Positions 45,340-52,400 of a stretch of 64,000 bases of DNA are shown one piece after another. The stretch covers positions 95,294,001 to 95,358,000 of the forward strand of contig OX597817.1 of the NCBI GenBank assembly GCA_951406725.2, given 5' to 3'. Below the pieces are notes generated by a model. The model searched no databases. It worked only from the letters and a program-made list of their open reading frames with translations, and was not told where the DNA came from. The position numbers and the translations under genes are program-made. The stretch is from Octopus vulgaris (lineage: Eukaryota). Position 1 is the first letter of the stretch, and every line of letters begins with the position of its first letter.

Positions 45340-46869
45340 CAAGAATGTAGCAGCGTATGAAGTGAAACTAAGTAATTTTATAATTTCCCTTTCAGATTTT
45401 CATTTTACTTGTGAATCTTTACGATGGATTAGTTAAATATGAAATAACTTCCTTACCACGCATGTCGTATACGCTTACCAACACATAGACACGCACAAAC
45501 ACACGTGTGTCTATGTGTAAAGTATTAAATCATTTTACCGGCTACTAAATTGTAAGTGGCTTCTTGATGCATCATATTGGATATGAAAATTTTTTGTTTG
45601 TTTAAAATTGTTATTTTTGGATTATTGAAAACCACCACAATTGCTGGTGACATTTCTGTTGTCAGTGATGTAGTTCATGCGAAAATATTCTCTGGAAGAT
45701 CATTTTTATCAGAGCAAGCAAGTTATGTGACTAACATCAAAATATTTTTTGCGTCTAAATACGAGATATTGCGTTTAAGTATTTAGAATATATGATAATA
45801 TTAATGGAGTAAACAATTACCAGCCTTACAATACCCTATTCGTTTTATCACGATCTGAATACAACTATAACTATGATTGTATCGTTATTCGGGAGACTAT
45901 ATTCCCCCACCCCACCCTAAATAAAAGGAAATAACACCGAAAACCGTTTATTATTGTTAATATTTTTAGTATATGAATAAATAAAGAGATCACTTTGTAG
46001 TAACATAACTAATTTTTTCTTATACATGTTGTAATTAAAGTATTTCCGAATTGCTCAGCGTGTTGCTAGAGAGGGTGTAACGACATGTACATTTGGGATC
46101 AGATATAATCGACCTTACTCCCTCCTCTAAATTTAACGCTCTGGTTGAAAGCCTTACTTTTCAGTTTTCGGCTATGAAAAGCTTGCCGCTTACCCTAAGT
46201 ATACGCTGTCGGACCAAATCCGAAACCATGTGGTTGCCAAACAAAATTCTTAATCACACAGTGATGACTGCACATTCACACACACATGTATGTATTCTTA
46301 TAGATGAATATACCTATGGAAAAAGGCATCATCCTTATGCGTTCATTTGGTTGTATAGGTAATCTCATGCAGTTACATGTATACAATTGTTCATGGTAGA
46401 AACAGACTAGAAAATTCGAACAAATATCTATAGTAGCATAGTCTCCTCAGTCGTACACTTCCCAACATATTCGGTTTAAAATTTCTTAATAGACATCTAA
46501 TAACACCAATTCAACTACAAAAACTGTTTCCCTACATCCAGCCAAATTAAATCTCCTTACCATAGCTTTGTATCAACCCACATTCTATAAACATACTTTC
46601 TTCCTATCCCTCTCTAACCTTCCTTCCTACACAATTAGTAGTCACCTGCATCACACTATCATTCACGTAGTACCCGACCTTACTAAAACTTGCCAAAGAC
46701 TATATAAAGCTACTGCCTCCTGCCCCAATAAATCACAGCTTGATGAAATTGAGCAAGTCAAAATTTCGAAGTCACTTTGTAAAAATTAATATGTACTCTA
46801 GCAAAAAAAAAAAAAAAATATCGAGTAATGTTAAATTGTCTATGACTTGACATAAAAACAGCATTAATA

Positions 46870-48648
46870 TTCTTTTACTTGTTTCAGTCATTTTACTGTG
46901 GCCATGCTGGAGCACCGCCTTGAAGGGTTTTAGTCAAACAAATCTACTCCAAGACTTTTGTTTTAAAGCTTAGTACTTATTCTATTTGTATCTTTTGTTG
47001 AACTCCTAAGTTATGGGGAAGTAAACATACCAACACCGGTTGTCAAACGGTACTGGGGAGACGGGACAAACACACACACAAACACATGACAGGCTTCTTT
47101 CAGTTTTTGTCTAGTAGAAGACACTTTCCAAGGTACCATGCAGTGGGACTGAGTTTGGAACCATGTGACTGGGAAGCAAGCTTCTTTATTTCTTTTAAAT
47201 TGTCATAAAGGCATTACATAGAGGGGGACATATAACAATAAAAATAAAAATATGATGCTATGAATGACACATGAAAATGAACATGAAAAACATTAAAATC
47301 AAAATATTAAAATACATGAACAATAAATGAGAAATGAGAATATGAAAATGTGTTTGTTACTCACCGGACACTGAATAACACCACTCGCCACCTCTGAGTC
47401 CTGAGTCCTCTTTAGTCTTTGATCTAGTCTTTCATTTACTGTTTTCCCCATCGCTGAGTGACAACAGTCTCTCCTCCATGTACCCCGTAACCTTTTTCAC
47501 TGGGAGAGGGGTCTTGTAAATTTTGTGGTGTCAGTCCTTTTTTTTTTCCTGTGGGGAGAGAGAGTAGGTGGGTTTGTTGTTTGCATGGGGAGGGTGGGTC
47601 TGAGTGGTCTTGGGTAGGATGGAGTTGGTCTGGGGTTCCACATCGCACTGTTCTTCCTCTTCTTTCTCTTTTTCTTTTATTCTCTGTCACTGTCCATTCA
47701 TCCTCCTTGTTCCTTCCATCTATTTGTACTTCTTCCTTTTTATCTCCACCACTGCTTCTACTGTTGTTTTTCTCTGCAGAGGGCAGTGCGCTCTAATGAG
47801 GCCCTTTTGGCCACGTTTAAAACATCGTGGGATTCTGCCCTCCACCCACACTCTTAACACAATCTCTCCCAACATCATCGTCTCTGCCAAACTTTCCAAA
47901 TGCCTCTCCTCTGCCTGTATAATGAGGTCCAGTGTTTTTCCTCTCCACCCTCTTTCCTCTGTTTCTGTTGCTTGGAGGACAGCTACCTCCTCCTCACTTC
48001 CAATGAGGACAGTTGCCGCAACCCAAGCCACTTCTATATCGGGTGGAATTCCTTCTACCCTCACCTTAGAAGTCTTTCTTCCAAGGTATGTGGGTAGAAG
48101 TACCATTTCCTCCATTTTTATAGTTGCACTCGCCAGCCTCCTTGCCTCCTCCGCTGTCCTAAACTGGACAACCACCATCCCATATCCATTTCCTTTTGCT
48201 ATGTATGACACTTCCTTCGAAAGGCCCTTCAATGCTTTTTCTACTTTTTCCATCTCCATCCACTCCACCTTCCTACTCTCCACTGAGTACACCTTTCCAT
48301 ATTTTCCATAACCCTTTTTGGGGGTAATAACTTTATGTCCTGTGTCATCTTACACAGTTCCTTCAGTCCGGCTAGGTCCACCTCTCTTTTCTTCACCTCT
48401 GCAACCTCAGTAAAACTCTTTACTCTTTACTCATTCTATTTACTACCTTAACAAGCTCCTCCTCCACTGAGGACAGCTCATATTCACTAAGGTCCAAATA
48501 CATTCCTTTCCACTGGAATAACACTCACCAACAAACTGCTGCCAAGCAGCACAAAAAATTCTGTCCGACTCGTCAAAAATCAACACAGCGAATAGACCGA
48601 TACATGCGTGGGAAACAAGCTTCTTATCATACAGCCACGCTTGCACCT
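46870..48648 (-). mobile_element. tRNA-derived SINE split in its tRNA head by a retroposon insertion
   Basis: SINE body at 46870-47186; the remaining 5' head (GGTGCAAGCGTGGCTGTATGATAAGAAG) resumes at 48609-48648. Confidence 0.8.
47187..48608 (-). mobile_element. ORF1-only non-LTR retroposon (L1/Tx1-type gag-like ORF1, no ORF2)
   Basis: 17-bp TSD TGGGAA(G/A)CAAGCTTCTT (47170-86 and 48609-25); decayed ORF1 from ATG ~48434 (KSFTEVA..VVQFRT..KVRVEGIPP..PRCFKRGQKGLIRAHCP); T-rich 3' UTR and A-rich tail; no APE or RT sequence seen. Confidence 0.8.
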
Positions 48649-49479
48649 ATAAATTTACAAAATCTACCAAAAAATGTATACACACTTCAGGAATGGAAAA
48701 ATCTTTATGAATATTTAACCTGTATAAGTATCTCTGTAAATATAAATACCTCTTCCGATGTTTTATTTAATTGCAATAACACTGAATAAAAATATTTATG
48801 CAGATTTTTCCACAGCAACCCTCAAGCAGCATGGCGGTCAGTTTAAAGGAGGGTATGGGTGTCCATTAAGACAGGAAAGGAGGGAGAATAACAAATGGTT
48901 AGAGATGAGGGTAGAGGTGAATGTAGTGAGTGCTGAACTGAAGTGGAAGTGCAGCTTGGTGGGAAATATCAGTATGGGTGGGGTGGAATAAGATGTGGGA
49001 GATAGGAGTAGCTCAAGAATGATGGATCAAGAAATAGGGGGAAATTGGTGGGGCGAGGGGAGTACAGGAGTACATAAGAATGGTTAGAGTGAGTGGGGTA
49101 TAGTGGCAGATACTAGAGGGCATTGAGAATGATAGCAGGTATTAGAAGTGTTATGGTGAAGTATGGTAGAGGAGAGAGAGTGTAAACTGGATGCACAGAA
49201 AGGAGGTGATCAGTGAAAATAGTGTGGGAAAAGGTGATAATGAGAATGAGGCATAGAAGTGGTATTAATATGTGCTGAAACTGGATAGATGTTAGGGGAA
49301 GGTGGGGGGGTAATGGAGATGGGATGTGGGATATGTTTGATGAGACAAAATGGGTGTAGGGGCAAAGCCCAGCATGCACAAGCATAAACAAAGGGTTTTT
49401 AGAATCTCCTTTTTGCTGTGATGGACAGATCTTCTTGAAAAGCAATTTGCCTCTTGTATTTCCATAGGTACAGCATATG

Positions 49480-52400
49480 GGATTTATACCTATCCTTTTC
49501 TGCATATTGAGCAAGGTTATTTCCCTGAAGATACTAGAGTTCTATTTTCTTTTCTGCTAAAACTTTAGTCCTTACTACGTTCACCTTGAGGCTCTTTGAT
49601 ACTGGGTTTAACTTCCAGTTTGAATTTCGTTTCTTATTCCTCTGTAGACTCAGCTATTAGAACTAGATTATTAGCACACAAGATTTCCCATGGGCATCCA
49701 GTTTTAAACTTCTCTGTGTTAGCCTGTAGAACTATGATTTATTTGAGGAGACTGATGTTTGAACCTTGATGGATTCCTACACTCATGCCAAATTCCTCAT
49801 TGAAATTGATGCTTACTCTCACTTTACCTACTGTATCTTTGTACATAGCTTGTCCACACTCACAAGCCATATGACTACACCTAGTTTCCTTGATGACTAC
49901 CAAATTACTGAGCATGACACACTGTCAACTGTCTCCTCCAAGATAATGAATGCTAGGAATAGTGGTTTACAGTTAGCCAAGTAGTTCTGCAGTTGACTTA
50001 CTAGGAATATTGCATCTGTAGTACACTTTCTGGGCACAAAGCCAAACTGCTTCTCATTTTGCACTAACTTTCTGCATGGTCTTCATAACCTGGTCCAGTA
50101 ATTTGGTTCTTTCATAATTAACAAAAGGGTGGAGAGCAGCAGTGTAATGAGCCTGTAGATAAATGAAAGTGGTGCAATGATGTGTGGGATGAAAGAGAGA
50201 GAGAGAGAGATGTAGTGACAGATGGTGGTCATACACAGGGATGGATATAGTGAGTAGCAAAGTTAGGGGCGTTTATGGTAAATATTAAAGCAGATAAAAG
50301 AAAGTATTATGGATGAAGTATGGTGGTCATATGATGTAGTTCAAGGTGAAGGGAAAGATAACTGGTGGCACAAAAAGAAATGATCAGGCAAAAATAAAGT
50401 GAGAAGGGGTGATGTTGAAATGAAGGATGGATATCAAAAAGAAGTGGTTCCTAAGACAGGGATAACTGGTGGCACAAAAGATGGCACATGTGCTGTTTGT
50501 TTCTGATATATCTACAGCAGCTGAATAATACTGTAATTAGAAGAGTAATGGAAGGATGAGCATTAGGAAGAAGTTAGAAGAGGTGGGGAAGGCCTGACAA
50601 GAACAGATTGAGTGTGGGAGCAAGGCCCAGTGTGTATTTAGACAAACATGGTGCTTTTAGGACCTTAATTTTGTTGTGGAGGATGGGTCTTCTTGAGCAC
50701 AGCAAAGCACCAACTCTTTCTTCTTTCATTTCCTCTGTGAGTCCTAACATCCTGAGTTTGATCTTCACTATTCTGTCTCATGTCTTTCTGGATCTATATC
50801 TTTCATAGTACCATCCATATTCCTATCATTTCTTTATGTAGCATAGCTATTCATATACAAGCATCACACAATCTGCCTTTCACTCTGAGGTAGAAACCTC
50901 TACTTATCTACAGAGATTATAGTGTTCTGAACTTTTTCCAGCTTATTCCTATCCTAGCAATTATACTTTCAGAGCATCTTCCTCCACTGTTAATTAAGTA
51001 ATCTTAGTAACAAAACCTATCTACTATCTCCAGGTCTCCTCCTGATCATTTGATAAAATCTACTTTTTGTATGTTCTTACTGTTTATTGCACCTGTGCAT
51101 CTGCCACTTTGTGATCCCATGTACCTCAGGTGTGTCCATAATTTGCATTGGGTACACAGTATAGCATTTCTATGTACAGTAATCCCTTGACTATTGCAGG
51201 TGTTATGTTCCGAAACCTCCCACAGAAATAATTAAAATCTAAAAAAATTATAAATACCTATCGGTCGCAGAAACCCAAATATACCAAGTGCTTGATAGGT
51301 GAACCATGGTATGGTGAAGGATTACTGTACCTCTTTTCTACATAATGAACAGGACCATTTTCCTGAAGGGAGCAGAGTCCTGTCTATTTGCTTTCACACA
51401 TAGAATTTTATAATTATGCTACAGATTCAGCTATAACAATGACATCATCATTGTAAATAAGCTTCCATGGGTAACTAGTCTTAAACTCTTTAGTTATGAC
51501 CAGTTACTGAATGTCTATGACAAATAGGAGGGGACTAAGAACTGACCCCTAGTGAACTCCTATCTGCACACTAAATTCATTGCTAACTCTTGTAATATGA
51601 CTTGTATGGCTCTCACAATCCATTTGTTAACTCATAGCTTCTGCAGCAATCACCAGATCAGAGATCAAAGAATTCTTTTGAAGGCTTTCTTCAGGTCGAA
51701 GAATGCTAAGTGCAGCAGTTTCGGCTAAATACGTCTACATTACTAGAAAGAATACATCGTTTAGTACTTCTCTGATATAAACTCGTAATCATCCAAGCTA
51801 ATTCACCACTTAATCAATTGAGCTCTAACTGTTTCCATAACTTTTGTGACCTGGTCCAGCAAATTGGTACCCCCCTTTAAGGCATCTCCATTACCTTTGT
51901 GACAGTCGAATATAATGTTATGCTAATTGTTGGGTATGATTCTTTCCTGCACAACCTGATTAGCTATACAGGGGACTAGGCCATATCCTACTCTGCCAGA
52001 TATTTTAAGCATCATATAAGTAATTTCCAATGGACCAAAGGCTTTCCTTGCTGTCATATCCTTAATTGCTTTATCCTACTGCTGTCAGACCAGTTATTCT
52101 GGCTGGTCTCTCTGACAGGTTCACATTAGGAAAAGTATCTTTCTCTCATGCATTCTCCACATTTAATAGCCTTTCATAGTAGTACTTCCGATCCGTTGCG
52201 GATCCGTGGAACAAGCTGCCAGACGAGATGGTGAAGATGCCGACGACCGCTTTGTTCAAAGCCTCCCTGGACCTCAAGTGGCCTGAACTCTTTACATGAA
52301 CACCACCCTGTACTTAACTCCATGTCCCCCTACATGGCCTTGCTATTTGCTTTTGAGCCAAATTAACTAACTAACTAACTTCCCTGTCTCTTTCTTTTCA

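Follow-up and report, generated by a model that had tools for sequence, protein, structure and literature searches.

The window analysed here, a stretch of 64,000 nucleotides from Octopus vulgaris, contains a SINE that is interrupted by a 1.42-kb element on the minus strand (start at 48609 or 48608, end at 47187), and the element has the ORF1 of a LINE and no ORF2. This raises the questions of what kind of element it is and of what placed it within the head of a SINE. We find that it belongs, as a dead copy, to an ORF1-only retroposon family with multiple copies in the genome, which we name S1. Our preferred account, in which we place considerable confidence, is that this family occupies one fixed base of the SINE and that a LINE which we call LINE-A likely supplied, in trans, the ORF2 protein that inserted the copy.

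A multicopy family without ORF2

A DNA search of the genome with the element returned 823 candidates, of which the best 40 were scored and the top 30 loci fetched. Both ends were present in 19 of these 30, most of them 1.36-1.49 kb long and two with insertions, and 28 contained the junction between ORF1 and the 3' UTR, the remaining 2 ending before it. Identity to the column majority is 87-94% among S1 copies, the window copy being ~7% diverged from it, and a young subfamily consists of copies that are 96-98% identical and have an open 420-aa frame. An earlier note on this DNA, made from the letters alone, had proposed that the copy may belong to a non-autonomous family and had advised checking whether its members share the ORF1-to-3' UTR junction, and these loci agree with it: S1 is a multicopy family with common 5' and 3' ends, one criterion of ORF1-present non-autonomous LINEs. 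ORF2 similarity was absent from the window copy (best E 0.24) and from the 30 cut-out S1 copies, in keeping with the proposed lack of an endonuclease or reverse transcriptase. A protein search, in which the best 150 of 13,101 candidates were scored and 40 of those fetched, gave no ORF2 within 900 bases behind ORF1 (0 of 40 fetched focal matches). Two competing origins that had been named beforehand were rejected: a one-off deletion of a full LINE, by the 823 candidates and the junction in 28 of 30 loci, and the random insertion of copies carrying ORF2, by the absence of ORF2 from the 30 copies and by the single fixed site. Locus L239 holds an internally deleted S1 with ~120 nt of the 5' end and the last 27 nt, with a target copy on each side and then another element, and L035:2032-3848 contains two ORF1-like units in opposite orientation, facing one another.

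Features of the window element and its host SINE, in window coordinates
Feature	Coordinates	Strand	Basis
S1 copy, ORF1-only retroposon, decayed full-length	47187..48609	-	sequence and family alignment
5' UTR, ~105 nt, start common to the family	48504..48609	-	family copies and intact-copy comparison
ORF1 pseudogene, ATG at 48503 to stop at 47357; two frameshifts and four stops	47357..48503	-	intact copies L051 and L052
Predicted RRM 1, approximate bounds	48075..48295	-	AlphaFold2 model of L051 ORF1
Predicted second RRM-like (ferredoxin-fold) domain, approximate bounds	47838..48073	-	AlphaFold2 model; tandem-RRM matches
Decayed CCHC zinc knuckle	47783..47824	-	PF00098 in intact relatives
T-rich 3' UTR, 170 nt; ~20 nt deletion relative to other copies	47187..47356	-	
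Terminal 4-bp hairpin, LINE-A-like form; one change breaks pairing here	47201..47213	-	
AATAAA across the element-target junction, candidate polyadenylation signal	47185..47190	-	sequence; function inferred
Target-site duplication, 5' copy, 16 bp	48610..48625	-	
Target-site duplication, 3' copy	47171..47186	-	
Host SINE head, 5' part; A-box-like motif at 48637-48627	48626..48647	-	same head before other copies
Host SINE remainder: decayed B-box-like motif at 47155-47145, body and 3' end	46869..47170	-	

The layout read earlier from the letters, a 1.42-kb element with a 5' UTR, a decayed ORF1 and a T-rich 3' UTR, was recovered. The lesions in ORF1 were counted against the intact natural copy L051, and the longest open stretch left in the window is 209 aa; an intact relative encodes an ORF1 of ~408 aa counted from the ATG, and intact copies have open frames of 412-420 aa. 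Both ends of the element needed revision. What had been taken for an A-rich tail is a fixed A-rich sequence joined straight to the target, without poly(A), in which AATAAA is completed by the first target bases. The identical junction is present in S1, in LINE-A and in S2/S3, a second ORF1-only lineage at the SINE site, and a short A run at the 3' end was seen in one copy (L251). The supposedly clean 17-bp target-site duplication proved to be 16 bp with one mismatch between its two units, because base 17 belongs to the element in most other copies, where it is a G and the element's first base; the A at this position in the window copy most likely reflects CpG decay. Duplications in the S1 family are 15-16 bp. 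The 17-mer flank, allowing up to two mismatches, has 5 matches in the window against 0.05 expected by chance. Further along, window positions 48820-49900 on the minus strand hold a purine-rich stretch and then coding-like sequence that is repeated in public contigs, probably a fragment of another LINE.

The ORF1 protein and its lineage

ORF1 had been described as gag-like, with RRM-like segments and a decayed CCHC knuckle, and modelling points the same way. A 29-sequence alignment served to build an AlphaFold2 model of the L051 ORF1, in which the pLDDT is near 90 at residues 60-260 and the tail is disordered. The first predicted domain aligned in VIA with the La RRM (Z 9.4, rmsd 2.6, 80 residues aligned), the second gave middling ferredoxin-fold matches (Z 7.7, rmsd 2.7, 77 aligned), and Foldseek matched the model to tandem-RRM proteins such as Sxl (E 6e-5). 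PF00098 (CCHC) was matched in 28 of 29 intact relatives at E<=0.5 (best E 1.8e-5). The window knuckle, RCFKRGQKGLIRAHC, departs from that of intact copies by C>R and H>L, and a Pfam search on the window's decayed ORF found no knuckle, giving a chance match only. We predict that the S1 ORF1 comprises two RRMs and a CCHC knuckle. The L1 ORF1 Pfam family is not among the 22 families matched by the 29 members at E<=0.5, and the Foldseek and VIA matches listed are generic RRM proteins with no L1 ORF1p among them; kinship with L1 ORF1p may nonetheless exist. The ORF1 protein search returned a single UniRef homologue, from Octopus bimaculoides, and in a protein-cluster atlas CCHC clusters ranked top (0.92), a ZCCHC3-like cluster at 0.89 being a lead only.

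The S1 ORF1 is homologous to the ORF1 ahead of ORF2 in LINE-A (~36% identity, E 2e-38). In a 46-row ORF1 tree, which was midpoint-rooted only, S1 groups not with the LINE-A ORF1 but with ORF1-only families at another target repeat (support 98/89). These sister families, the C families, end in the hairpin of another LINE, LINE-C, such that one ORF1 lineage includes both S1, at the SINE site with a LINE-A-like hairpin, and families at the other repeat with a LINE-C-like hairpin. Either passengers switched helper by a change of tail, or pairs of passenger and helper diverged together. LINE-C itself, with an open 1132-aa ORF2, represents a second helper-passenger system (L036, L032, L034, L048, L074, L077, L081 and L082), with arrays of up to ~ten ORF1-only units, a GC-rich terminal hairpin and one site of another repeat.

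Between S1 subfamilies, ORF1 dN/dS is 0.17-0.35 with dS up to 1.3, and in the C families dN/dS is 0.09-0.14; copies were chosen for open frames in both cases, which biases dN/dS down. Because dN/dS in S1 stays in this range over such distances, ORF1 must have persisted over a long period in the absence of ORF2, and the ratios, near 0.2, indicate purifying selection on ORF1 in the S1 lineage. The idea that S1 is a recent deletion of LINE-A was rejected on two grounds, the grouping of its ORF1 with ORF1-only families of the other target and the dN/dS near 0.2.

A fixed base in a SINE and a likely helper

S1 copies sit at one fixed base of an abundant tRNA-derived SINE head. The window element splits its SINE 16 bp into the stretch between an A-box-like and a B-box-like motif, both named for their likeness to the box consensus; the placement between the boxes and the targeting of the SINE head by the whole family had both been put forward earlier, and both hold. 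Among the top 30 S1 loci, 22 of 24 5' ends and 20 of 22 3' ends lie at the SINE motif, an end being scored at the site if the motif adjoins it with at most 2 mismatches in 11. When the 27-nt S1 tail was searched alone, leaving the target unused, it had 29 exact genome matches, 26 of them followed by the target in register and the other 3 by a version of that site carrying an indel or 3 mismatches. The 2.8-Gb genome contains 68,385 empty sites that match exactly, and assuming ten times as many decayed sites, random insertion at that base and strand has a chance of ~1 in 8,000. S1 uses both alleles of the site, the window copy the older one, and nearly every S1 copy is flanked by both SINE head and SINE body.

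About ten further copies of the host SINE lie within the window. Intact SINE heads scored 52-60 against genome tRNAs, compared with a shuffled maximum of 48-51, and four intact heads beat all 300 shuffles, with a best isotype that varies (Lys or Ala). ARAGORN found no tRNA in the window, and Rfam gave no tRNA match on 400 bases with an intact SINE head. Ohshima and Okada reportedly described three octopus SINEs in 1994. Among SINE copies in fetched loci, three target alleles order by age (median divergence 13%, 7% and 2%), and elements, whether young or old, occupy the allele that matches their age, although the groups were defined by target, which makes both observations circular. An escape of the SINE at its target was set aside for the same reason: the oldest two alleles differ only inside the target, but grouping by target makes the case circular.

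The tRNA-like head raises the prospect that the true target is a tRNA gene and that the SINE is struck as a look-alike. The site does lie at the anticodon-arm position of the head, and an excerpt of PMC8869645 describes Dada DNA transposons that target tRNA anticodon regions. The 3' flanks that were read, however, lead into the body of the SINE or a different element and never into a tRNA gene, and aligned tRNAs (8 isotype-anticodon types, 30 loci) differ from the SINE over the 16-bp target; we regard a tRNA target as very improbable.

A candidate for the missing enzyme lies next to an S1 copy. At locus L052/L071, an S1 copy is followed by one target repeat, a 5,449-bp LINE and the SINE body. 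This LINE, LINE-A (5.45 kb), encodes an ORF1 and an APE-RT ORF2. Its 5' ends are at the SINE site in 27 of 30 cases and its 3' ends in 19 of 19 (full sequences were fetched for 20 of the 30, one of them without a 3' end), which exceeds the criterion for target specificity given in an excerpt of PMC4494074, >20% of flanks in one repeat. L129 retains an intact open 1140-aa LINE-A ORF2. PF03372 (APE) and PF00078 (RT) were found in the L052 ORF2, and PF13966, a C-terminal zinc domain, in the related ORF2s of L036 and L057 and in the nearest atlas clusters. Human L1 ORF2p is closest to the LINE-A ORF2 among solved structures (E 1e-67, versus E 2e-20 for R2), one of the two closest ORF2 matches is from Argonauta, and the ORF2 searches returned no match labelled Tx1. 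LINE-A is probably an L1/Tx1-type LINE, with a reverse transcriptase nearer the L1 group than R2 and a fitting domain layout. Elsewhere, a LINE-A copy without its first 77 bases (L091) adjoins sequence judged by eye to be tRNA-like, on the opposite strand and not the SINE, and L057:605-3970 carries the open 1122-aa APE-RT-zf ORF2 of a related LINE-D, whose own ORF1 is in L072.

The earlier note had advised looking for an autonomous Tx1/L1 element with the same 5' and 3' ends. LINE-A answers to this at its site and its similar 3' end; the 5' end differs, S1 and LINE-A having none in common. The window element and LINE-A have only the last 40 nt in common (78% identical, E 0.006). The hairpin of the S1 tail has 4 bp, with pairs kept in 32-35 of 35 tails and no compensatory change within S1. 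A long closing stem was rejected, as single folds gave z -0.3 to -2.0 and RNAalifold on the 35 tails kept only the 4-bp hairpin. Of 20 loci chosen because their tail resembles that of LINE-A, 4 hold older relatives (77-85% identical to LINE-A) whose ends lie at the older target allele. Because it shares its target base and similar last ~40 nt with S1, LINE-A is the likely helper, acting in trans. In the first 30 of 102 matches to the tail plus old target, 17 belonged to ORF1-only families, 13 had no protein match and none had ORF2, so passengers appear to outnumber helpers.

From these comparisons we infer trans-mobilisation of S1 by LINE-A along the following lines. S1 would be transcribed from its own 5' UTR into an RNA that runs slightly into the duplicated target, as suggested by the AATAAA that spans the element-target junction, and its own RRM-RRM-CCHC protein would coat that RNA. 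The LINE-A ORF2 protein would bind the common terminal hairpin, its APE endonuclease would nick the SINE at GGT|AAG[A/T]AGC, and reverse transcription would be primed at that nick, where base pairing by the read-through sequence probably assists. A second nick, at a distance of 15-16 bp, would duplicate the target and thereby regenerate the site, so that later elements could stack there. Each insertion puts the A and B boxes >1.4 kb apart and would thus silence the SINE copy struck.

Flanks that nearly always include both SINE head and SINE body would also be expected if SINE and element moved as one composite retroposon and the common flanks came from a few master copies. In addition, 5 of 19 LINE-A copies have the young allele in the 5' target copy and another allele in the 3' copy, as if part of the 5' flank were inherited from a donor; for an independently inserting element, this suggests that a few bases of the target likely arrive with the 5' end of the RNA. 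The SINE bodies, however, are of different subfamilies and are older than the elements, with non-CpG median divergences of 10.9% versus 6.3% for S1 (n=16) and 2.9% versus 0.7% for LINE-A (n=17). Distances between elements and between flanks are uncorrelated (Mantel p 0.37 and 0.83), rows without a SINE body being dropped (5 of 21 S1, the window copy included, and 3 of 19 LINE-A with a 3' end). Various mixed arrays bear target copies on both sides, including one on C7 that reads head, S1, S2-type, S1, LINE-A and one on C10 to which three families contribute at least seven ORF1-only units, as do short 5'-truncated inserts of ~40 nt to 0.7 kb (L139, L141, L170 and L180), the clear examples of which are S2/S3 and LINE-A and not S1. 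The sequence comparisons thus indicate that the elements inserted independently into standing SINEs, and leave the composite with hardly any probability. Among contigs of six public runs compared with the locus, none from the more distant organism E bridges the junction with unique flank, and a joint that skips 47152-48609, whose short side is just 25 letters long, is also compatible with intact SINE copies at other places; run X1, which may be the source sample, has a contig that crosses the 5' junction without differences.

Two further structures were observed at the SINE site or among S2-type insertions. At L265:5006-7570 (G000:C10:46771505-46774069; locus L258/L265), an old LINE-A-type ORF1 and part of the endonuclease are followed by the last ~110 nt of the S1 tail; the joint, at the SINE site, may reflect a template switch during insertion, which would link both RNAs, or else an array may have undergone an internal deletion; we count this locus among the observations against our preferred account. 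The insertions L171-L175 (C14, ~73.4-74.3 Mb), five near-identical S2-type copies that share their flanks, are probably a segmental duplication.

S1 might instead be a recent internal deletion of an autonomous parent of its own, lost or unsampled, that shares its site with LINE-A by chance. The S1 ORF1 does group apart from that of LINE-A, and sampling covered the best 40 of 823 DNA and the best 150 of 13,101 protein candidates, so an S1-type autonomous element could be missed. The same ORF1 nevertheless groups with other ORF1-only families at 98/89 support, ORF2-less S1 subfamilies differ by dS of up to 1.3, none of the 40 fetched focal protein matches has ORF2 within 900 bases, and LINE-A-type elements of matching ages occupy both target alleles, all of which make a private parent improbable. 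Somewhat less improbable, but still unlikely in our estimation, is a choice of site by RNA, in which a stretch of the tail complementary to the target would pair with target DNA. In 15 of 15 LINE-A and 30 of 42 S2/S3 tails, a stretch of 7 nt or more is complementary to the opening 12 bases of the target, and the central base of this motif tracks the target allele in 14 of 14 LINE-A and 31 of 34 S2/S3 motif-bearing tails. These copies are not independent, with only two or three lineage changes underlying the covariation, and the LINE-A motif can pair, within its own RNA, with the target copy acquired by read-through (z -2.0), such that RNA structure explains the covariation equally well. Only 2 of 55 S1 tails have the complementary motif, and those 2 may be misassigned, yet S1 uses both alleles of the site. 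The motif therefore seems not to be needed for site choice, since S1 strikes the same base without it. By analogy with characterized site-specific LINEs, we favour a model in which the endonuclease of LINE-A would set site specificity and the read-through bases would help priming.

Relation to known ORF1-only and site-specific LINEs

S1 had been likened to HAL1, the ORF1-only element of mammals, which ends in a poly(A) tail. The likeness holds for an element with ORF1 only and no ORF2; a strict HAL1 identity does not, as S1 has no match to the L1 ORF1 family and no poly(A). Excerpts of PMC5753468 and PMC5786205 describe HAL1 as non-autonomous, encoding only ORF1p, as S1 does, and moved in trans. 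Unlike HAL1, S1 has an RRM-RRM-CCHC ORF1 without an L1 ORF1 Pfam match, is site-specific, has a fixed end and is no close derivative of its helper. The Anopheles element Ag-Sponge, as excerpted in PMC5786205, is likewise an ORF1-present non-autonomous LINE but is derived from CR1.

On the helper side, the closest parallels are Tx1-clade LINEs, which combine an APE-RT ORF2 with a fixed site in another repeat and can have a non-autonomous passenger at the same target, as we propose for LINE-A. Examples in the excerpts of PMC4494074 and PMC1950540 are Tx1L in Tx1D, Keno in U2, Kibi/Koshi and the crocodilian Tx1-Mar with SINEU-3, and for Tx1L-EN the latter source reports target specificity set by the endonuclease. 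The targets named in those excerpts are DNA transposons, LTR elements, snRNA and 5S genes, satellites and microsatellites, whereas LINE-A targets a SINE; and the passenger of Tx1-Mar is a non-coding SINEU, whereas several LINE-A passengers encode ORF1. For priming, PMC7265360 describes R1Bm and SART1Bm, site-specific APE LINEs in which target-like bases at the RNA 3' end help, and SART1 moving a 3'UTR donor in trans. Those elements target rDNA or telomere repeats and LINE-A a SINE, and the parallel in priming would rest on the AATAAA at the junction.

ORF1-only LINE derivatives and Tx1 LINEs in other repeats are thus known, and what appears to be new, within the literature searched, is a SINE target with ORF1-coding passengers. 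A SINE as LINE target with a guild of such passengers was not found in that literature, as far as its excerpts go. A paper on Octopus vulgaris repeats lists 13 active L1-Tx1 families, and neither 'target' nor 'ORF1' occurs in the main text as available (PMC13282606). The natural variants described here make two questions testable, for what reason passengers retain their ORF1 and whether site choice lies with protein or with RNA, the latter through the comparison of S1, which lacks the complementary motif, with LINE-A and S2/S3, which have it. A LINE that cuts between the promoter boxes of a SINE may also hold that SINE in check, and the intact 1140-aa ORF2, being site-specific and served by cargo tails of 40 nt, is a candidate for use as an insertion tool.

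The nearest working analogue of S1 and LINE-A is the HeT-A/TART system. Excerpts of 10.1101/2025.06.09.658640 and PMC5786205 describe HeT-A as an ORF1-only element of Drosophila telomeres that depends on the ORF2 of another family (TART/TAHRE). Both systems combine an ORF1-only element, a borrowed ORF2 (as we propose for S1), a common target and head-to-tail arrays, and ORF1-only lineages give rise to new ORF1-only families in HeT-A, to which we liken S1. More tentatively, and as a possibility that we would not yet favour, a long-lived ORF1-only clade may form a passenger guild on site-specific LINEs, changing helper and target via its last ~40 bases; the SINE head would then resemble a dispersed telomere, with stacks of helpers and passengers like those of HeT-A and TART, and such a guild would track SINE target alleles over time, silencing the copies struck. 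S1 differs from HeT-A in its interspersed SINE target, its L1/Tx1-like rather than Jockey affinity, its 15-16-bp duplication, its lack of poly(A) and the absence of a shown host benefit. The Drosophila preprint considers repeated loss of ORF2 peculiar to telomeric elements (10.1101/2025.06.09.658640). S1 and LINE-A would be a non-telomeric parallel to HeT-A/TART, which suggests that array-forming LINEs with a common target may breed ORF1-only passengers generally.
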